NCBI GenBank assembly: GCA_965219405.1
Contig: OZ244736.1
Span: 1,705,443 to 1,769,442 of the forward strand
Length of the DNA: 64,000 bases
Origin: Dehalococcoidia bacterium
Lineage (GTDB): Bacteria > Chloroflexota > Dehalococcoidia > UBA6926
Direction of reading: 5' to 3'
The notes under the pieces were generated by a model that searched no databases, had not been told where the DNA came from, and was given only the letters and a program-made list of their open reading frames with translations. Shown here in pieces: positions 6,062 to 29,884 of the stretch (position 1 is the stretch's first letter; every line of letters starts with the position of its first letter). A program made the position numbers and the translations under genes.

Positions 6062-6302
6062 TCTGGTTTCTCCTCACGGATCCGAGGCAGGTATTTCTAC
6101 TATCAATTATCGCAAGAGGTAGCAAGAGTTCTCCTGATTGCGGAATCGCGGTGAAGGCATGCTTTCGGCAGAAGGAGGGGAGTGCGGTACGAGGTTGGGC
6201 TGCGCAATGCGTATCAGATTCCCGCATTCGCGGGAATGTCGGTGATGGGGGCGGGAATGAGGGAGTGACCCTTCGACTGTGCTCAGGGTGAACGGGCGGA
6301 GG

Positions 6303-20510: not shown

Positions 20511-22919
20511 ATGACTGACCAGCAGGAAAGCCCATCGGCGCTCGGACACCTGCGCGTCCTTGACCTCGGCGGCCCGACGCCGCAGTTCGCCACTCGTCTG
20601 CTCGGCGATCTTGGCGCGGACGTTATCAAGATAGAGCCGCCCGGCGGCGATCCCCTCCGCAACCAGGCCCCCTTTGCCGGTAACACGCCTGATCCTGAGC
20701 GCAGCATCCCGTTCATTTCTGATAACCACAACAAGCGCAGCATTGTCCTTGATCTCGAAACCGAGGATGGCCGCGATTCGCTCCGCCGTCTTGCCGCCAC
20801 AGCGGATGTCATCGTGGAATGCTTTGACCGCACCTATCTCGATGACCTCGGTATTGGATATGAAACCCTCTCGCAGGCCAACCCACGGCTCATCTTCGCC
20901 TCTGTCAGTCCCTACGGCCGGACCGGCCCGCGCCGCGACTACGTCGGCACGGAGCTGACCGTGCAGGCCATGACCGGAGTCATGTATATCCACGGCGACA
21001 GCGAGGCGCGCCCTTGCCTCGTTCCAGTGGAGCAGCTTTACCGCGTTGCCGGATTCCATACTGTCGTCGGCGTTATGACTGCCGTGCGCGCCAGGCACCT
21101 GACAGGACGCGGCCAACAGGTGGACATCTCATTGCAGGACGTGGGTCTGTGGCAGCTGATGGTCGTGCTGGGAGATTACTCGTTCTCCCAGTACATCAGG
21201 CGACGCGCCGGCTCCGCGCCCAGCAACCCCGGCGTGTCCATCTTTGAAACGCAGGATGGCAACTTTGTCCAGACCTCCACCTACATGGATCGCCACTACA
21301 CGCGCCTCGCGGACTGGATGGGGTCGAATCAGGTCACGTCAGACAATATGCTTGACCCCGTCTGGCGACGGGAGAACATCGACCTAATCGACGCCGTTAT
21401 GGTGGACTTCATTGCGCAGGTAGACAGCGAAGATTTCGTGGACGAGGGTCAACGGCGCGGCATCCCCTTAACGGCCATTCACAAGGTCTCTGATTTCGTC
21501 AATCATCCGCACCCGAACTCCCGGGATTGGTTCAAGAATCTCGAGCACCCGGTCATCGGCAAATACCGCACGGCCGGCGCGCCGTTCCGCATGTCCCGCA
21601 CCCCATGGGGCGTCCGCCGCCCTGCCCCCTCCGTCGGCCAACACACGGATGAGGTTCTTTCCGAAGTGCGTCCACCTGTCCCGGCCGGGGCTGCAATGAA
21701 CGGGGTGAGTGGCGATCAAGGCGCCGCCCGAATCAAGCCGCTTGATGGTGTACGTGTCGTTGATTTCACACAGGCTGTCGCGGGGCCTGTTGCCACGGGA
21801 TTTCTCGCCTTCCTGGGCGCAGATGTTATCAAGGTGGAGACGGATGCCCACCCACAGCCGCGCAGGCCGGATACAGGCGGATTCGCGGAACTCAACCGCG
21901 GCAAGCGCAGCGTCACCATCAACGCCCAGCACCCTGAGGGACTGGACGTCGTCAAGCGGCTCATTGCCGAATCGGACGTTGTTATCGACAACTGGCGCGC
22001 GGGCGTCTTGGATCGCATGGGCCTCGGATACGATGACCTGCGAGAGGTTAAGTCGGATATCATCGCCGTCCAGATGCCCGGCCTCGGCCTGACCGGCCCG
22101 GCACACCACTACATCACGTACGGCCAGATGATCTTTGGGTTCTGCGGCCTTGGATATATCTGGGGTCATGCCGACGCCCCCATGACCACCCGACCCAAGC
22201 TTGGCTACACCGACTACGTCGCCGGTTCCGCAACTGTCGGCGCGATCCTGACCGCCCTTGAGCACCGGGCGCAGACCGGCGAGGGGCAGTTCATAGAAGT
22301 GGCTCAACTTGAGGGTCTTGCCTCCACGTTGGGCACGCTCTACATGGATTACACCATCAACGGCGTGGATGCTGTCGCGAACGGCAACAACTCAGAGCGG
22401 TTCGCCCCGCACGATGTCTATGCCTGCATCGGCCACGACGCGTGGTGCGCTATCGCGTGCCGCGACGACGACGATTGGCGGCGGCTTATTGTCGCCATGG
22501 AGTCGCCCGCATGGGCGCAGGACAGCAAGTGGGACACGCTGGACGGCCGGGTAGCCAACAAGGAAGAGCTTGACCGCCGCATCGGTGAATGGACGGCCGG
22601 ATTGAATCCGCAGCAGGTCTTTGACCGACTCCAACGCCACGGCGTGCCCGCGGGAATGGATCAGGGGCCGGACAAGCTGGTGTGGGACCCGCACCTGCGA
22701 GAACGCGGCTCCGTCGTCACCGTTCAGCCGCCTGCGCCGTGGGACTCATCACCGCCCCTCACGCACCCGGCCCTCACCGCGCGCCTTTCGGACACCCCCG
22801 GCCAATCAGACATCCCTGCCCCCGCCTCCGGCCAACACAATGAAGACATCTATCACAACGTGATTGGGCTAACGGATAACGAGATAGCCAATCTAACCGA
22901 GAGCGGAGCACTGGTTTAG
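20511..22919 (+). CDS. tandem-duplicated family III CoA-transferase (two CaiB/BaiF domains in one 802-aa chain)
   Basis: The N-terminal domain has LRVLDLGGPTPQFATRLLGDLGADVIKIEPPGGDPLR. The second domain has VRVVDFTQAVAGPVATGFLAFLGADVIKVET. Each is ~400 aa. Confidence 0.7.
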   Translation: MTDQQESPSALGHLRVLDLGGPTPQFATRLLGDLGADVIKIEPPGGDPLRNQAPFAGNTPDPERSIPFISDNHNKRSIVLDLETEDGRDSLRRLAATADVIVECFDRTYLDDLGIGYETLSQANPRLIFASVSPYGRTGPRRDYVGTELTVQAMTGVMYIHGDSEARPCLVPVEQLYRVAGFHTVVGVMTAVRARHLTGRGQQVDISLQDVGLWQLMVVLGDYSFSQYIRRRAGSAPSNPGVSIFETQDGNFVQTSTYMDRHYTRLADWMGSNQVTSDNMLDPVWRRENIDLIDAVMVDFIAQVDSEDFVDEGQRRGIPLTAIHKVSDFVNHPHPNSRDWFKNLEHPVIGKYRTAGAPFRMSRTPWGVRRPAPSVGQHTDEVLSEVRPPVPAGAAMNGVSGDQGAARIKPLDGVRVVDFTQAVAGPVATGFLAFLGADVIKVETDAHPQPRRPDTGGFAELNRGKRSVTINAQHPEGLDVVKRLIAESDVVIDNWRAGVLDRMGLGYDDLREVKSDIIAVQMPGLGLTGPAHHYITYGQMIFGFCGLGYIWGHADAPMTTRPKLGYTDYVAGSATVGAILTALEHRAQTGEGQFIEVAQLEGLASTLGTLYMDYTINGVDAVANGNNSERFAPHDVYACIGHDAWCAIACRDDDDWRRLIVAMESPAWAQDSKWDTLDGRVANKEELDRRIGEWTAGLNPQQVFDRLQRHGVPAGMDQGPDKLVWDPHLRERGSVVTVQPPAPWDSSPPLTHPALTARLSDTPGQSDIPAPASGQHNEDIYHNVIGLTDNEIANLTESGALV

Positions 22920-23866: not shown

Positions 23867-25843
23867 TCAGGGCGTCCTGAGGTGCGCCGGCGTGCGCCGG
23901 GCGCAGTAGGCGCAGGTTCCGATGGGGGAAGTTTCGCCGGTGGAGAGGGGATTCCCCGGAGCGGTGAGACTTGTTGGCGTTGTTCCGGCCTTCACTAGCA
24001 GGCGGTGCAGCAAGCAGAGGGGGAGGCCGACGACGTTGAGATAGCAGCCGTTGAGTTCTGCGACGGGGCGGAATTCCGGGTGTTGGATGCCGTAGGCGCC
24101 TGCCTTATCGAACGGGTCGCCGGTGGCGATGTAGCCCTCAATTTCCTCGTCTGTGTAGTTGCGCATGCGGCCTATGGTGATTTCGTGACCGACGATGGGC
24201 TCAGGGTTGTCGCCGGACGGGATGACAGCGATGGCGGTTATGACCTGGTGGTCTCCTTCTCTAAGCGTGCGGAGCATCTGGCGGGCCTCATCCACGTTCT
24301 GTGGTTTGTTGAGGATGCGGCCGTCCGGGGCGACAACAACGGTGTCCGCGCCAACGACCGGGACTGCTGCGGTGTCGTCCGTGATGGATTGGGCTTTTCT
24401 GAGGGCGAGGTCCTGGACGTAGGCGACGGGCGGGGAGGCGGGGATAACGGAGTCAGCAGATTGTTCGATGTTGGAGGCGGGGGCGAGGGCGGCGAAAGGG
24501 GTGCTTTGGTGGGTGAGGATTTCGCGGCGGCGGGCTGAGGTGGAGGCGAGAATAAAGCCGTCTGACGGCATTCGCTCCAAGGTCGAAACGCTTTCAATGT
24601 GGTAGGTGTGGGGGAACATATCGACGGGTGTGACGTCGGTCAGCATGTAGCCGTAGAGGATGAGCTTGTTCAGGTCGCGGGCGAGGGTGGCCGGATCGCA
24701 GGAAACGTAGACAATGCGGCGGGGTTGGAGTCGGCGTAAGGCATCGATGACCTCCGGATAGCAGCCGGCGCGTGGCGGGTCAAGGATGACGGCATCGACG
24801 CGCTCATCAAGTTCCGGCAGGGCCTCTTCCGTCTTGGCCATGATCATCTCGACGTTGGGGAATGGCGCGAGATTGACTTCAGCGTCGCGGATGGCGGCGG
24901 CGGATTCTTCTATGGCAATGACGCGTCCGACCATCGGGGCAATGAGAGCAGCAATTGTCCCGACACCGGCGTAGGCGTCAACAACGGTGTCAGAGGACGT
25001 GGGTTGGAGGCGGTCCCTGACCAAGGCCATCATGCGCTCGGCCTGGGCGGTGTTGACCTGGAAGAAAGAGGCAGCGGACACCTTGAACGGCACGTCGAAC
25101 AGCTGCTCCTCATAGGATTCCTGGCCTGTTTCAACGCCCCGGTCATCGCCGCGATCGTTGAGAGCAGGATGGATGAGTGTCTCGCCCGTGTTCTTGCCGA
25201 TACGGACGGCAAGCTGGCGCTCGCGGTTGGTCAGCGCGCCATCGAGCTTGCGCTTGATATCGTTGATGCGCGTGTCCATGATCAGGCACTCATCGATGGG
25301 TTCGAACCGATGAGTGTGCCAATGGGTGAATCCGGTTGTGCCTTCGCGTCGCACGGTAAAACGAGCGTTGTTGCGGTAGTTCCAGGGGTTTTCGGCGGCA
25401 AGGATTTCTGAGACTGGCGGCTCCATAATCTGGCCGATCTGTCGGAGTTGATCAGTAAGGGCGCTCTGCTTGATCCTGCCCTGCTCTTCATAAGAGATGT
25501 GCTGGAGCTGGCAACCGCCGCACGCGCCAAAGTGCGGGCAGCGGGGTTCCACGCGCTCCGGCGATGGACGCAACACCTCCACGACCTCAGCAACGATGTG
25601 CGTTGGGTGCTCTTCACGCACCTCAACAATAACGCGCTCGCCCGCGATGCCGTAGGAGGCGAGGACGATTTTCCCGTCCTCACGTCGTCCCTCTGCCTCA
25701 CCCTGATGGCCCGAGCGCTCAAGTTCAACCGTGAGTCGCTGCGGCGGGCCGTCAGGAGTGGAAGATTTGCCGTTTCGCGGGGGAAATCGGCGGTGTTTCT
25801 TTCTGCTGGCTTTCATGGTTGTGGGAATCAGGGTAGCGGCCAC
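23867..25843 (-). CDS. 23S rRNA (uracil-C5)-methyltransferase RlmD/RumA-like (TRAM + 4Fe-4S + class I MTase) fused to C-terminal Maf nucleoside-triphosphate pyrophosphatase domain
   Basis: It has the CPHFGACGGCQLQH cluster, VVDAYAGVGTIA, DPPRAGC, and then ILASTSARRREIL...VVGADTVVV...GDPFDKAGAYGIQ (Maf). The exact start is uncertain. Confidence 0.7.
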   Translation of the reverse strand: MAATLIPTTMKASRKKHRRFPPRNGKSSTPDGPPQRLTVELERSGHQGEAEGRREDGKIVLASYGIAGERVIVEVREEHPTHIVAEVVEVLRPSPERVEPRCPHFGACGGCQLQHISYEEQGRIKQSALTDQLRQIGQIMEPPVSEILAAENPWNYRNNARFTVRREGTTGFTHWHTHRFEPIDECLIMDTRINDIKRKLDGALTNRERQLAVRIGKNTGETLIHPALNDRGDDRGVETGQESYEEQLFDVPFKVSAASFFQVNTAQAERMMALVRDRLQPTSSDTVVDAYAGVGTIAALIAPMVGRVIAIEESAAAIRDAEVNLAPFPNVEMIMAKTEEALPELDERVDAVILDPPRAGCYPEVIDALRRLQPRRIVYVSCDPATLARDLNKLILYGYMLTDVTPVDMFPHTYHIESVSTLERMPSDGFILASTSARRREILTHQSTPFAALAPASNIEQSADSVIPASPPVAYVQDLALRKAQSITDDTAAVPVVGADTVVVAPDGRILNKPQNVDEARQMLRTLREGDHQVITAIAVIPSGDNPEPIVGHEITIGRMRNYTDEEIEGYIATGDPFDKAGAYGIQHPEFRPVAELNGCYLNVVGLPLCLLHRLLVKAGTTPTSLTAPGNPLSTGETSPIGTCAYCARRTPAHLRTP

Positions 25844-25876: not shown

Positions 25877-27172
25877 ATGCTAACATTAACGAAGCACAAA
25901 GGCGCGGATTCAGGTGGGGAGCAGCGATCCGTGGCAAGTATCTTATTTGGTGTTGGCGACCGCCGCGATCTTGATCGCGCGGCCGCAAAAGGCAACGGGC
26001 CGTTCGACGGAATGTACGCGGCGACGGAAGACGGTTTTTGGGCTCTGCGCCAGCGACTCATCGAGGAAAAAGAGACGGCCGGAGTCTCCGTGATGATTTC
26101 ACCGGGGGACCGTATTCCCCGTGTTCGACTCATTGAGGAGCTTCTGCGCCTGGAGGCGATGGGTGTCGAGTTAATCTCTGCAGAAGCGCGGGGGCATCCG
26201 CTTGAGATTGCCCTAACGCCGGAAAATGGCGCAGTTCCATCAGATCGAGGACAGATGATCCGACGGAGCATGGCGCGCAAGGCGCTGCGTGGCGTCGTTC
26301 TGGGCCGGATTCCGTATGGATACAAGACCGGAGAACGCGGTCAGTTGGAAGAACACCCCGAGGAAGCGACCGTCGTCAAAATCATCTTTGGGCTCGCGGC
26401 ACAGGGCAAGGGGATTCGTGCCATCGCGGCGGAACTGAATTCACGCGGGCTGCGAACCCGCCGGGGAGGCGCGTGGAGCATCGTCACAATCCGTGACATG
26501 CTGCGCAATCGCGTCTACACAGGCGCCTACAACCGGTTTGGCGCGCGTGTTGCCGGAAACCACCCTGCCCTTGTTGCATCCCCGCTGTTCAAGGAAATCC
26601 AGGAACGGCTTGACGAGCGGGCAAAGCGCGCCGGATACGGGGCGGGGAGGCCGTACCTCTTGTCCGGCACAGCCATCTGCGGCTCATGCGGCAGCAACAT
26701 GGTGGGCGTGACACGCCGGCAATCTTGGACACGGAATGACGGATCATCAGGATCCAACACTTATCGCTATTACCAGTGCGAGGCCGCGACGAACCAGGGG
26801 CGCTGCTCATACCACACCCGGCGAGCACGGGAACTTGACGCGGCGGTGCTGACACGTGTCGGCCTGGACGGGATCGCCTCACGGATCGAGGCAGCGGTCG
26901 ATTTACGGATAAGCAACCTGGCCAGGGAAGCGGCCAAAGGCCGAACGCCAGCGCAGGATATTCGTTCGGCGGCGCAGTTGCTGTTCCACGAGGCGGGGCG
27001 GCTGCGGGACGCGACGCGGACACACGGAAGCGCGTCGACGGCAATTGAATCCCTTCTCCAATTGGCGGATGACGACATGGCGCTTCACTCCTTACTGCGT
27101 GACGTGGTGCTCTTAGGCGTATCGCGGATAGTCGTTGGCGAGAAGGACGCGCGCGTCGCACTCAGAAAGTGA
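25877..27172 (+). CDS. large serine recombinase homologue with degenerate catalytic N-terminus (recombinase domain + zinc ribbon intact)
   Basis: The recombinase-domain region is present: RIPYGYKTGE...IRAIAAELNSRGLRTRRGGAWS...RVYTGAY. The zinc ribbon is present: LLSGTAICGSCGS...YYQCEAA...RCSY. The resolvase-domain core is recognisable (VSVMISPGDRIPR...GVELIS), but the YaRVSt nucleophile motif is replaced by ILFGVGDRRD. The track ORF extends upstream into the convergent gene. Confidence 0.55.
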   Translation: MLTLTKHKGADSGGEQRSVASILFGVGDRRDLDRAAAKGNGPFDGMYAATEDGFWALRQRLIEEKETAGVSVMISPGDRIPRVRLIEELLRLEAMGVELISAEARGHPLEIALTPENGAVPSDRGQMIRRSMARKALRGVVLGRIPYGYKTGERGQLEEHPEEATVVKIIFGLAAQGKGIRAIAAELNSRGLRTRRGGAWSIVTIRDMLRNRVYTGAYNRFGARVAGNHPALVASPLFKEIQERLDERAKRAGYGAGRPYLLSGTAICGSCGSNMVGVTRRQSWTRNDGSSGSNTYRYYQCEAATNQGRCSYHTRRARELDAAVLTRVGLDGIASRIEAAVDLRISNLAREAAKGRTPAQDIRSAAQLLFHEAGRLRDATRTHGSASTAIESLLQLADDDMALHSLLRDVVLLGVSRIVVGEKDARVALRK

Positions 27173-28876: not shown

Positions 28877-29884
28877 ATGAGTGAGCAGTCCCCCGCCACA
28901 GCAAGCACGTATGGGGGTCAGGCACTCATCGAGGGTGTGATGATTCGCGGTCAGACGTGCGTGAGCATGGCGGTGCGCCGCCCCAACGGGGAGATCCTGG
29001 TCGAAACACAACCCATCGGGTGGCGCTGGGCGCGGACGATTCGCCGCATCCCGTTTGTCCGGGGAGTGATTGTCCTGAGCGAGATGCTCGTGGTGGGGAC
29101 GCGGGCACTGATTTTCTCGGCCAATGTCGCCTCCGAGGAGGAGGCGTCAGAACGGGACCGCAGCGTGGATTCCCGCTTTCGCGGGAATGACGGGTTGGAA
29201 AATGAGCATGACGAGGCTGCAAGCGGGGATGATACCAAGCGCGTAGCCGAATCGTCCAAGTCCCTGTCATCGTGGGCTGTTGCGGGGTCGGTCGGGGTCA
29301 GTCTGCTGCTTGCCATCTCGATCTTCTTTGCGACGCCGGTGTTTGCGACGCGCCTACTTGATTCCTGGTTGGAGTCGTCCAATTTATGGAGCAACGTGAT
29401 TGAGGGGGCGATTCGTCTCCTAATGTTTGTGGCGTACATCGGACTGATCGGGTTGATGCCGGACATACGGCGCGTGTTCGCCTACCACGGCGCGGAGCAT
29501 ATGACGATCCATGCGCGGGAACACGGACAACCTTTGGACGTAGGATCAATTCGCCAATTCGGTACGGCGCATCCGCGATGCGGGACGGCGTTCATCCTCG
29601 TTGTACTGGTTGTGGCGATCATCGTTCACGTGTTTTGGACGCCGCCCGGGTTGGTGGATCGCGTGATTTCCCGGGTCGTGGTGCTGCCGCTGATTGCGGG
29701 GCTGAGCTATGAGATCATCCGATTCAGCGGATTCCACGCCGACAACATTCTCGTCAAGGCAATCATCTGGCCGAATCTGTTGCTTCAGGCGCTAACCACA
29801 CGCCAGCCGGACGATGATCAGATTGAGGTGGCCGTGCAGGCGCTGGAGGGGGCGCTGGCAGAAGATCAACGCGTAGCGGCATAG
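28877..29884 (+). CDS. DUF1385 (YqhQ-like) membrane protein
   Basis: YGGQALIEGVMIRG and C-terminal TM segments typical of DUF1385, with an acidic insert. Confidence 0.7.
   Translation: MSEQSPATASTYGGQALIEGVMIRGQTCVSMAVRRPNGEILVETQPIGWRWARTIRRIPFVRGVIVLSEMLVVGTRALIFSANVASEEEASERDRSVDSRFRGNDGLENEHDEAASGDDTKRVAESSKSLSSWAVAGSVGVSLLLAISIFFATPVFATRLLDSWLESSNLWSNVIEGAIRLLMFVAYIGLIGLMPDIRRVFAYHGAEHMTIHAREHGQPLDVGSIRQFGTAHPRCGTAFILVVLVVAIIVHVFWTPPGLVDRVISRVVVLPLIAGLSYEIIRFSGFHADNILVKAIIWPNLLLQALTTRQPDDDQIEVAVQALEGALAEDQRVAA

Follow-up and report, generated by a model that had tools for sequence, protein, structure and literature searches.

An RNA uracil-C5 methyltransferase of the RumA/RlmD type joined in one reading frame to a YhdE-type Maf pyrophosphatase: a conserved predicted fusion in Chloroflexota

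On the minus strand of the window (the whole stretch of DNA that was analysed, 64,000 nucleotides from an uncultured Dehalococcoidia bacterium), positions 23867 to 25843 form a single open reading frame of 658 codons with zero internal stops, in which a predicted RumA/RlmD-type RNA methyltransferase is followed by a predicted Maf-type nucleotide pyrophosphatase. The fusion is real and is conserved in a branch of Chloroflexota. We think it rather likely that its product works as one enzyme with two functions, linking the formation of m5U in RNA to the clean-up of m5UTP, where the two activities, the RNA target and the coupling are what we infer. The features are as follows, all on the minus strand.

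23867-25816, minus strand: probable fusion coding sequence, 649 aa plus stop; the open frame runs upstream to a GTG at 25843
25742-25816, minus strand: basic N-terminal tail (aa 10-34, MKASRKKHRRFPPR...), probably disordered, shared by the closer half of the family
25565-25741, minus strand: TRAM-like beta-barrel (aa 35-93), which the model shows as five strands at aa 36-92 and phmmer matches to RumA residues 28-136
25286-25540, minus strand: segment of the central domain with four predicted 4Fe-4S cysteines, C102, C108 and C111 (25511-25540) and C186 (25286-25288)
24572-25087, minus strand: predicted SAM-dependent uracil-C5 methyltransferase catalytic domain (aa 253-424), from PF05958, TIGR00479 and the alignment to RumA
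24557-24571, minus strand: five-residue junction MPSDG (aa 425-429), leading from the last methyltransferase strand to the first Maf strand
23990-24556, minus strand: predicted complete YhdE-type Maf NTP pyrophosphatase domain (aa 430-618), from PF02545, TIGR00172 and the alignment to YhdE and Bacillus subtilis Maf
23870-23989, minus strand: C-terminal tail (aa 619-658), a variable linker and then CAYC (C644 and C647; 23903-23914)

Translation is likely to start at the ATG at 25816 (MKASRKKHRRF...) and not at the GTG at 25843, from which the earlier note had drawn its span. We favour the ATG because most homologues in alignment A1 start at or align to this conserved N-terminus, and because the identical 649-aa product is recorded in NCBI/ENA on a 1,897,452-bp contig of another assembly record. 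The motifs quoted in that note were all found in the frame at their given positions: CPHFGACGGCQLQH at aa 102-115, STSARRREIL at aa 434-443, GADTVV at aa 498-503 and GDPFDKAGAYGIQ at aa 575-587. The AlphaFold2 model has a pLDDT below 50 for aa 1-31, and the basic tail that follows the ATG may contact RNA.

Within the window the gene stands alone on its strand among unrelated neighbours. One flank carries a CoA-transferase and an enoyl-CoA hydratase gene, and the other a recombinase-like gene, a metallophosphoesterase gene and the L21 gene; a search for an operon context around the gene in the window found nothing. The flanking synteny is kept at the related loci L001-L014 and L016-L018 and is rearranged on the enoyl-CoA hydratase side in L015 and L019, and is functionally uninformative. 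A further maf or rlmD gene was seen neither in the 64-kb window nor within 10 kb of the fusion in 20 relatives, and none of the stand-alone Mafs among the matches listed lies on a contig that equals in length any fusion-bearing contig larger than 1 Mb; all this is weak negative evidence.

Judged from its sequence, the N-terminal half is a complete RNA uracil-C5 methyltransferase of the RumA/RlmD type. The Pfam family tRNA_U5-meth_tr (PF05958) matched aa 253-424 with an E value of 3.9e-18 and 66 bits against a cut-off of 23, and the NCBIfam model TIGR00479 (rumA) scored 293.2 bits against a cut-off of 183.55. In Foldseek searches the predicted model spanned full-length RumA, barrel included, over 429 columns with a TMt of 0.84, and aligned to RlmCD with a TMt of 0.81. 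The earlier note had placed a TRAM domain at the N-terminus; the predicted structure bears this out with a beta-barrel, but the Pfam TRAM family (PF01938) does not reach an E value of 0.01 or less on the sequence of this protein, although it is recorded for several members of the fusion family.

The Fe-S cluster motif and the SAM-methyltransferase motifs that had been proposed for this half align to RumA and are invariant in 46 of 46 family members (conservation counts throughout are for 46 aligned members with 43-96% identity). C102, C108 and C111 fall on the RumA motif CPHFGVCGGCQ, and C186 lies within DECLIM; the corresponding 4Fe-4S ligands of RumA are those we take to be numbered C81, C87, C90 and C162. 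Equally invariant are the key residues of the catalytic domain, namely Q262, the pair D355-P356, the predicted nucleophile C382 (24698-24700) in VYVSCDPATLARD and the predicted general base E417 (24593-24595) in HIES. Their RumA counterparts are the glutamine of FIQVN, the DPARAG motif, the cysteine of VSCNPATLARD and the glutamate of HLES, the Cys, Glu and Gln presumably being C389, E424 and Q265.

Escherichia coli RumA/RlmD, which makes m5U1939 in 23S rRNA (PDB 1UWV, 2BH2), and Streptococcus pneumoniae RlmCD (PDB 5XJ1, 5ZQ0) have the same layout of barrel, central domain and class-I methyltransferase (TMt 0.81-0.84), and they share with the fusion protein the four Fe-S cysteines, the catalytic Cys and Glu, the FxQxN uracil-binding motif and the DPPR SAM motif. 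The fusion differs from them by its C-terminal Maf domain and cysteine tail and by its basic N-terminal extension, and its identity to them in the structural alignment is 25-29%. The strict RlmD equivalog model, NF009639, gave 254.6 bits, below its cut-off of 458. The nearest enzymes in the PDB by structure and sequence act on U1939, on both U747 and U1939, on U747 and on tRNA U54; given the NF009639 score, U1939 of rRNA is one candidate target among these for the predicted methyltransferase.

By score thresholds, residues and predicted fold, the C-terminal half is a complete Maf, as the earlier note had proposed, and one of the YhdE type. Pfam Maf (PF02545) matched aa 430-618 over nearly its whole profile (positions 2-186 of 187; E value 1.2e-46, 159.1 bits), TIGR00172 (maf) scored 135.9 bits against a cut-off of 117.15, and Foldseek aligned the model to YhdE with a TMt of 0.86-0.89. 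The signature residues are S436, R438, R439, E460, K483, D500, T501, K513 and Q587, with D500 (24344-24346) as the equivalent of the catalytic base. The Maf signature S-R-E-K-D-K corresponds to S10, R13, E33, K52, D70 and K82 of YhdE (PMC3899018), for which the equivalents here are S436, R439, E460, K483, D500 and K513. Five of these six are invariant in all 46 members; the Glu is present in all 46 to within one alignment column, its exact column being ambiguous because a variable insertion, found after this metal-binding Glu in close relatives, adjoins it. The YhdE subfamily is further marked by the motif R-T-Q (R12, T71 and Q153 of YhdE), and the YceF subfamily by W-Q-E (PMC3899018). The fusion family keeps R-T-Q, with R438 and Q587 in 46 of 46 members and T501 in 44, the other two having Ser. 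A degenerate Maf domain is thus rejected, since all signature residues are conserved.

The known proteins nearest to this half are E. coli YhdE and B. subtilis Maf BSU28050 (PDB 4P0E, 1EX2, 4HEB), with a fold TMt of 0.86-0.89, 36-39% identity and both the S-R-E-K-D-K and the YhdE-specific R-T-Q residues in common. The Maf of the fusion differs from them in being covalently joined to an RNA methyltransferase and in having C600, C610 and a CxxC tail. Conservation is 45 of 46 members for each of C600, C610 (these two lie within the Maf domain) and C644, and 35 of 46 for C647, and the four may together form a metal-binding site; the pLDDT is low at aa 629-643, between the domain and CAYC. The same four cysteines occur in stand-alone Chloroflexota Mafs and are absent from YhdE and B. 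subtilis Maf; therefore, the cysteine tail is rejected as an adaptation specific to the fusion.

The two halves meet at the short junction with hardly any linker. The whole chain was modelled with a pLDDT of 87.3 and a pTM of 0.87, and the pLDDT is 93-95 over aa 411-440, across the junction. The spacing between E417 and S436 is 19-21 residues in 35 of the 46 members. Being short, conserved in length and confidently modelled, the junction speaks for two domains held in one fixed body, not for beads on a string.

Both Pfam domains are present in 116 of the 120 best clusters (clusters at 90% identity), down to 44% identity, and all named sources among these clusters are Chloroflexota or Dehalococcoidia. 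In addition, the in-frame fusion was found at 20 Dehalococcoidia genome loci, so the one-frame fusion proposed in the earlier note holds here and across relatives. The fusion-bearing chromosomes are small (1.85-2.45 Mb). In close relatives the Maf half has 54-79% identity, against 76-92% for the methyltransferase half. Methyltransferase-only records among the 120 best clusters are P0034, P0035, P0036 and P0040. The genes behind P0036 (locus L081) and P0040 (locus L082) carry frameshifts inside the fusion gene, with the Maf part intact in another frame, and one of these two contigs has several frameshifts and is labelled 6x; P0034 and P0035 have out-of-frame C-terminal sequence of the same kind. 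We therefore rejected all four as genuine RlmD-only relatives and regard them as frameshifted assemblies.

Stand-alone maf genes of Chloroflexota also bear on the origin of the fusion. At 4 of 9 such loci examined, and not at the other 5, maf has an rlmD-like gene directly upstream on its own strand; to our reading this adjacency is the new observation here. Three of the gaps are 2, 57 and 178 bp, and at the fourth locus two small genes lie between. Outside the fusion family, none of 60 rlmD-like loci (1.03 Mb) had a Maf within 10 kb. This difference points to an rlmD-maf pair turned fusion, and we concluded that the fusion most likely arose from such a gene pair in Dehalococcoidia-related Chloroflexota. 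The unfused pairs (L083-L088, L090) resemble the fusion in gene order, strand and Maf cysteine tail, and their halves are orthologous to it, the methyltransferases with 46-51% identity (to the fused domain) and the Mafs with 43-47%. They differ in being two separate genes, with gaps of 2-178 bp or the two small inserted genes; in the L087 pair, maf shares 4 bp at its 3' end with a second gene for a class-I methyltransferase. Neighbour-joining of the Maf domains gave a tree that mixes the fused forms with the adjacent-unfused ones on short branches at its base, which fits one fusion with later fissions as well as several independent fusions.

Taken as one bifunctional enzyme, the protein would work as two intact enzymes on one polypeptide. 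The part at aa ~35-424, a SAM-dependent methyltransferase with a 4Fe-4S cluster, would act on a structured RNA, most likely 23S rRNA, by flipping out a specific uridine and methylating it at C5 with Cys382 as nucleophile and Glu417 as base. The Maf part (aa 430-618) would rely on Asp500, Glu460 and a metal ion to cleave m5UTP, pseudo-UTP, dTTP and UTP to the monophosphate and pyrophosphate. RNA turnover would release m5U, re-phosphorylation would turn it into m5UTP, and Maf would keep this out of the nucleotide pool; the fusion would guarantee that the m5U-forming enzyme and the one that removes m5UTP are co-expressed in equimolar amounts. The earlier note was correct that Mafs hydrolyse m5UTP and pseudo-UTP: YhdE-type Mafs act on both, and m5UTP is preferred in vitro, with the lowest KM and the highest kcat/KM (PMC3899018). 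Their activity extends to dTTP, UTP and CTP, and the only substrates of YhdE confirmed in vivo in E. coli are dTTP and UTP (PMC3899018), so the link may concern the canonical pyrimidine pools and not m5UTP. The functional coupling that had been suggested gains independent support because unfused relatives keep rlmD and maf adjacent and co-directional, while the house-cleaning rationale, with m5UTP sanitation as the selective reason for the link, is the part that we infer.

Another explanation, which we consider unlikely but would take seriously, is that only co-expression is at work: an rlmD-maf pair would have collapsed into one frame in small, streamlined genomes, the halves being independent, one in rRNA methylation and the other, separately, in control of the dTTP/UTP pool or in cell-division delay, with no particular role in m5UTP removal. 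The small chromosomes agree with this, as does the relative whose unfused genes lie 2 bp apart (TGA-cc-ATG); with such a gap, a small deletion or mutation that loses the stop and restores the frame suffices for fusion. So do YhdE's in vivo substrates, of which dTTP and UTP are the sole ones demonstrated, and other Chloroflexota maf genes that adjoin penicillin-binding-protein genes and match the classical link of Maf to cell division. On the other hand, the rlmD-maf linkage, as a fusion and as neighbouring genes, is kept down to ~44% protein identity and is absent at the 60 rlmD-like loci outside the family; a linkage that lasts like this usually marks a functional tie. The conserved junction in a confident model (pTM 0.87) suggests a fixed two-domain body, and in chemical terms the methyltransferase makes what Maf prefers as its substrate.

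If that body is indeed rigid, the two sites might communicate, for example by occupancy of the Maf pocket with m5UTP, dTTP or UTP gating rRNA or tRNA methylation, or by Maf acting in cis on nucleotides released at the ribosome. We regard such a machine as quite improbable. If this is true, ribosome biogenesis would be linked to how the pyrimidine pool stands, and the unexplained human ASMTL would gain a bacterial model.

It seems slightly more doubtful still that the Maf half merely serves the methyltransferase, as a nucleotide-sensing regulator or an extra RNA-binding surface that gates methylation by the pyrimidine pool. The rigid predicted arrangement (pTM 0.87, hardly any linker), the faster evolution of the Maf half in close relatives, and the cysteine-bearing tail and variable loop insertion, both absent from YhdE and B. 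subtilis Maf, would suit this idea. Against it, every YhdE-type catalytic and selectivity residue is conserved in the 46 members (T501 in 44), as expected for an active hydrolase, and stand-alone relatives have the same cysteine tail, so the tail is not a fusion adaptation. A pure binding module, for its part, would also retain base-recognition residues.

Finally, an assembly or sequencing artefact joining two adjacent genes, to which the four methyltransferase-only records of close relatives and the truly unfused pairs of more distant ones might point, is effectively refuted by the frame that is continuous here and at 20 independent related loci, by the 116 of 120 best clusters from many studies, by the exact protein in another assembly record and by the frameshifts or out-of-frame C-terminal sequence behind those four records.

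The nearest known parallel is human ASMTL, in which a Maf is fused to a predicted methyltransferase and which was read in 2013 as hinting at a functional link of Maf to methylation (PMC3899018). Like the fusion, ASMTL (PDB 2P5X) has a YhdE-like Maf covalently joined to a SAM-methyltransferase-type domain, but the order is reversed, with Maf N-terminal in ASMTL and C-terminal (aa 430-618), after the methyltransferase (aa 253-424), in the fusion. The methyltransferase families differ as well: the fusion has a RumA-type RNA m5U enzyme with an Fe-S cluster, and ASMTL a predicted methyltransferase with no assigned substrate. The methyltransferase domain of ASMTL is ASMT-like, of the O-methyltransferase type, and no O-methyltransferase family was among the Pfam matches of the fusion protein. 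Unlike in ASMTL, the methyltransferase product of the fusion corresponds directly to the substrate of its Maf. That order and partner both differ points to separate origins, that of the fusion being the bacterial rlmD-maf pair. As to the earlier note's remark that it knew of no description of this architecture, a literature search, with most subscription journals outside its reach, found no published description of an RlmD-Maf fusion, but such proteins are abundant in public databases and the concept of a Maf-methyltransferase fusion had been noted for ASMTL in 2013.

In public databases, the automatic label of a family member is either "RlmD" or "septum formation protein Maf", and one half of the protein stays hidden whichever is used. 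Since 2013, when Maf proteins were found to act on modified nucleotides, there have been two candidates for their role in vivo, house-cleaning of modified nucleotides on one side and dTTP/UTP control with cell-division arrest on the other. The conserved fusion and the gene adjacency link a YhdE-type Maf to an enzyme whose predicted RNA product becomes the best in vitro substrate of Maf, and they offer a single recombinant protein on which the coupling could be examined. Together they are comparative-genomic ("Rosetta stone") evidence for the house-cleaning view, and give support, not proof, to the idea that Maf cleans up after RNA methylation.

The fusion gene is read on the minus strand, and each of the peptides quoted in the earlier note, which had proposed that a uracil-C5 RNA methyltransferase and a Maf pyrophosphatase are joined in one gene, was located in its ORF. 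Residue conservation was scored on an alignment of 46 fusion-family members (43-96% identity).

Features of the fusion gene (residues numbered on the 658-codon ORF)
23867..25843, minus strand: fusion ORF, 658 codons, without internal stop
aa 102-115: CPHFGACGGCQLQH
aa 253-424: tRNA_U5-meth_tr domain (Pfam)
aa 430-618: complete Maf domain (Pfam, profile positions 2-186 of 187, E=1.2e-46)
aa 434-443: STSARRREIL
aa 498-503: GADTVV
aa 575-587: GDPFDKAGAYGIQ
C102, C108, C111, C186: four Fe-S ligands, invariant among the 46 members
Q262, D355-P356: methyltransferase half, invariant among the 46 members
C382: methyltransferase nucleophile, invariant among the 46 members
E417: methyltransferase general base, invariant among the 46 members
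S436, R439, E460, K483, D500, K513: equivalents of the Maf family signature
R438, T501, Q587: equivalents of the YhdE-subfamily motif

The ATG at 25816 is probably the true start of the gene; most of the aligned homologues start at, or align to, the N-terminus MKASRKKHRRF, and an identical protein of 649 aa is recorded in NCBI/ENA on a contig of 1,897,452 bp. Besides the fusion gene, no maf-like or rlmD-like sequence was found in the 64-kb window.

RumA-type enzymes flip out the target uridine and methylate its C5 by means of a Cys acting as nucleophile and a Glu acting as base, with SAM as donor. The fusion protein scored 293.2 bits with TIGR00479 (NCBIfam rumA; cut-off 183.55), and its phmmer alignment to E. 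coli RumA takes in the cluster motif CPHFGxCGGCQ, FxQVN, DPPRAG, the nucleophile motif VSCxPATLARD and the base motif HxES. The Fe-S cluster and methyltransferase motifs reported earlier are therefore borne out by alignment to RumA and by the invariance of the key residues. The protein scores below the threshold of the strict RlmD equivalog model, and among the structural neighbours are enzymes that act on U1939, on both U747 and U1939, on U747 alone or on tRNA U54.

The Maf half aligned end to end to YhdE and B. subtilis Maf, which together with the full Pfam coverage confirms a complete domain, and TIGR00172 (NCBIfam maf) gave 135.9 bits (cut-off 117.15). S-R-E-K-D-K is the Maf family signature, and R-T-Q is the YhdE-subfamily motif, the YceF counterpart being W-Q-E (Tchigvintsev et al. 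2013, PMC3899018). Loss of the catalytic residues, named beforehand as a refuting observation, was not found: the signature and subfamily residues are invariant in 46/46 members, save T501 (44/46), and the signature Glu lies in 46/46 within one alignment column, the exact column being blurred by an adjoining variable insertion. YhdE-type Mafs convert m5UTP, pseudo-UTP, m5CTP, dTTP, UTP and CTP to NMP and PPi, with the lowest KM and highest kcat/KM for m5UTP (PMC3899018), in line with the m5UTP and pseudo-UTP hydrolysis assumed earlier. In the close relatives (loci L001-L019) the methyltransferase half is 76-92% identical to that of the window and the Maf half 54-79%, and length-variable low-complexity insertions are tolerated at two sites of the Maf half. 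Four conserved cysteines, C600, C610, C644 and C647 (window 23903-24046), which are absent from YhdE and B. subtilis Maf, lie in the contexts GCY, PLC and a C-terminal CxxC beyond a variable linker. The stand-alone Chloroflexota Mafs (205-230 aa) have the same cysteines; the set may bind Zn or an Fe-S cluster at a site that only Chloroflexota Mafs have and of which we know of no description.

The AlphaFold2 model built on the family alignment has a mean pLDDT of 87.3 and a pTM of 0.87, only aa 1-31 and 629-643 being poorly predicted. It matches RlmCD/RumA over the full length of both (TMt 0.81-0.84), a predicted match that includes the TRAM barrel and so supports the TRAM domain claimed before, and it matches YhdE with TMt 0.86-0.89. 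Since the junction is short and confidently predicted (MPSDG, five residues, pLDDT 93-95), and the spacing from the methyltransferase base to the first Maf serine is 19-21 residues in 35/46 members, the two enzymes appear in the model to form one compact body.

The fusion is real, as the same in-frame arrangement occurs in relatives' loci and in database clusters. In a scan with one genome per species, it was found at 20 Dehalococcoidia loci (48-86% identity) on chromosomes of 1.85-2.45 Mb. Among 5.8 billion proteins searched, both Pfam domains are present in 116 of the 120 best clusters at the 90% identity level; the proteins range from about 520 to 720 aa, most of them near 600, and identity goes down to 44%. 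The named sources among these 120 clusters are Chloroflexota or Dehalococcoidia metagenome-assembled genomes, and the names are single-function, either "RlmD" or a Maf name; the fusion is already abundant in sequence databases, hidden under misleading names. Four close relatives recorded as methyltransferase-only (P0034-P0036 and P0040) have C-termini resembling out-of-frame translation, and at both such loci examined the Maf sequence is intact in another frame, one contig being labelled 6x and carrying several shifts. Such records stem from assembly errors or very recent lesions and do not represent separate genes. An artefactual origin of the fusion is essentially refuted. Clustering at 50% identity gave junction-spanning representative clusters, of which some 8 are full-length and about 9 partial; the family is moderate in size and lineage-restricted.

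Features around the fusion gene
25907-27172, plus strand, divergent from the fusion gene: gene with Recombinase (PF07508) and Zn_ribbon_recom (PF13408)
20511-22919, plus strand: 802-aa protein, CoA-transferase family III in two stretches
L019 13199-13318, L081 6144-6260, L082 6156-6278: second copy of the fusion 3' end

The recombinase-like gene keeps its syntenic position in L001-L019 (41-74% identity), and no Resolvase catalytic domain was detected in it even at E<=1; it would seem to be a relative of the large serine recombinases, stably resident and perhaps domesticated, and not to belong to a mobile element. Because the better of its two matched stretches alone spans nearly the whole profile, the 802-aa protein is suggestive of a tandem-duplicated or fused CoA-transferase; the enoyl-CoA hydratase gene that follows it is the most conserved of the neighbourhood (95-98% identity among relatives). 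Two copies of a dispersed palindromic repeat, TCATTCCCGCGAAnGCGGGAATC, are present in the window (6217-6239 and 29168-29190; 0 expected), the latter copy in frame within a DUF1385 gene and encoding ...DSRFRGNDG.... At L019 11381-11540 this element and tandem repeats of roughly 24 bp that code for (PSVIPTTP)n stand in frame in the Maf-domain loop after the metal-binding Glu. More copies occur elsewhere in L019 and in other relatives, some inside annotated genes, and similar peptide motifs (SPHSGESRNPS, AAEESK) recur in the fusion-protein tail of other relatives. These elements are palindromes inserted in frame into coding genes, and they recall the Rickettsia palindromic elements. The second copy of the fusion 3' end (aa ~608-656, last ~48 residues) is 46-51% identical and is located about 1.1 kb downstream in L019 and in L081 and L082, two loci with frameshifted fusion genes, where it follows an NmrA-like gene. 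It resembles a duplicated 3' end beside a gene that has been inserted, and is absent from the window.

The main new result on the origin of the fusion is the adjacency of the two genes in unfused Chloroflexota relatives. A search that used only the Maf half retrieved stand-alone Mafs (205-230 aa, 43-50% identical) in genomes of Anaerolineae, Aggregatilineales, Phototrophicales and Dehalococcoidia. Nine were examined for genomic context, and four of these are directly preceded, on the same strand, by an rlmD-like gene (TRAM and PF05958).

Stand-alone Mafs linked to an rlmD-like gene
P0330 (L085, L086; independent JGI and ENA assemblies): 2 bp away (TGA-cc-ATG)
P0336 (L090): 57 bp away
P0343 (L083, L084): 178 bp away
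P0364 (L087, L088): two small antisense genes in between

Over the full length, the adjacent methyltransferases share 46-51% identity with the fused one, a range into which distant fused members also fall. Unrelated contexts surround the remaining five Mafs (P0321, P0399, P0411, P0356, P0313), one of which adjoins penicillin-binding-protein genes. As a control, 60 rlmD-like loci that do not belong to the fusion family (mostly Firmicutes, 1.03 Mb in total) were examined, and no Maf was found within 10 kb; the linkage is therefore specific to one Chloroflexota branch. The linkage takes three states: adjacent pair, interrupted pair and fusion. In a neighbour-joining tree of Maf domains, fused and adjacent-unfused members are intermixed and the non-adjacent Anaerolineae-type Mafs stand apart, the basal branches being too short for counting fusion events. 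In L087/L088 (3320-5250) one of the antisense genes is RHH_1-like, and the end of maf shares 4 bp with one more class-I methyltransferase gene (Methyltransf_11/25), another Maf-methyltransferase association.

Taken singly, both halves are unremarkable representatives of well-studied families. Full-text searching of the literature found no description of an RlmD-Maf fusion, in agreement with the earlier note, to which the architecture was unfamiliar. Many eukaryotic Mafs, human ASMTL included, are fused to a predicted methyltransferase, and some archaeal maf genes adjoin a methyltransferase gene, which was read in 2013 as a hint of functional relationship (PMC3899018); a Maf-methyltransferase fusion was thus anticipated conceptually. 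In contrast to ASMTL, the domain order is reversed here and the methyltransferase belongs to the RNA uracil-C5 type; the protein falls outside that architecture and is an apparently independent bacterial case of the same theme.

Both catalytic centres are identified, complete and conserved, and the fusion and the rlmD-maf adjacency are conserved as well. The coupling that had been called functionally coherent, and with it the earlier interpretation, is supported by sequence, fold and comparative genomics, and the function we infer is as follows. m5UMP would be set free by RNA turnover and could be turned into m5UTP by re-phosphorylation; with the sanitising enzyme joined to the m5U-forming one, both would always be produced together. 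We consider it fairly probable that the fusion links m5U formation to m5UTP sanitation in this way. The main rival, that the link reflects nothing more than joint expression, in streamlined genomes, of two housekeeping functions independent of each other, seems to us rather unlikely. A regulatory or RNA-binding role of the Maf half is improbable, because the catalytic Asp and Glu are kept. The fusion tells more than ASMTL does, since what its partner methyltransferase makes corresponds to the preferred substrate of Maf; it speaks usefully for a house-cleaning role of Maf, and the protein is a tractable one for testing.
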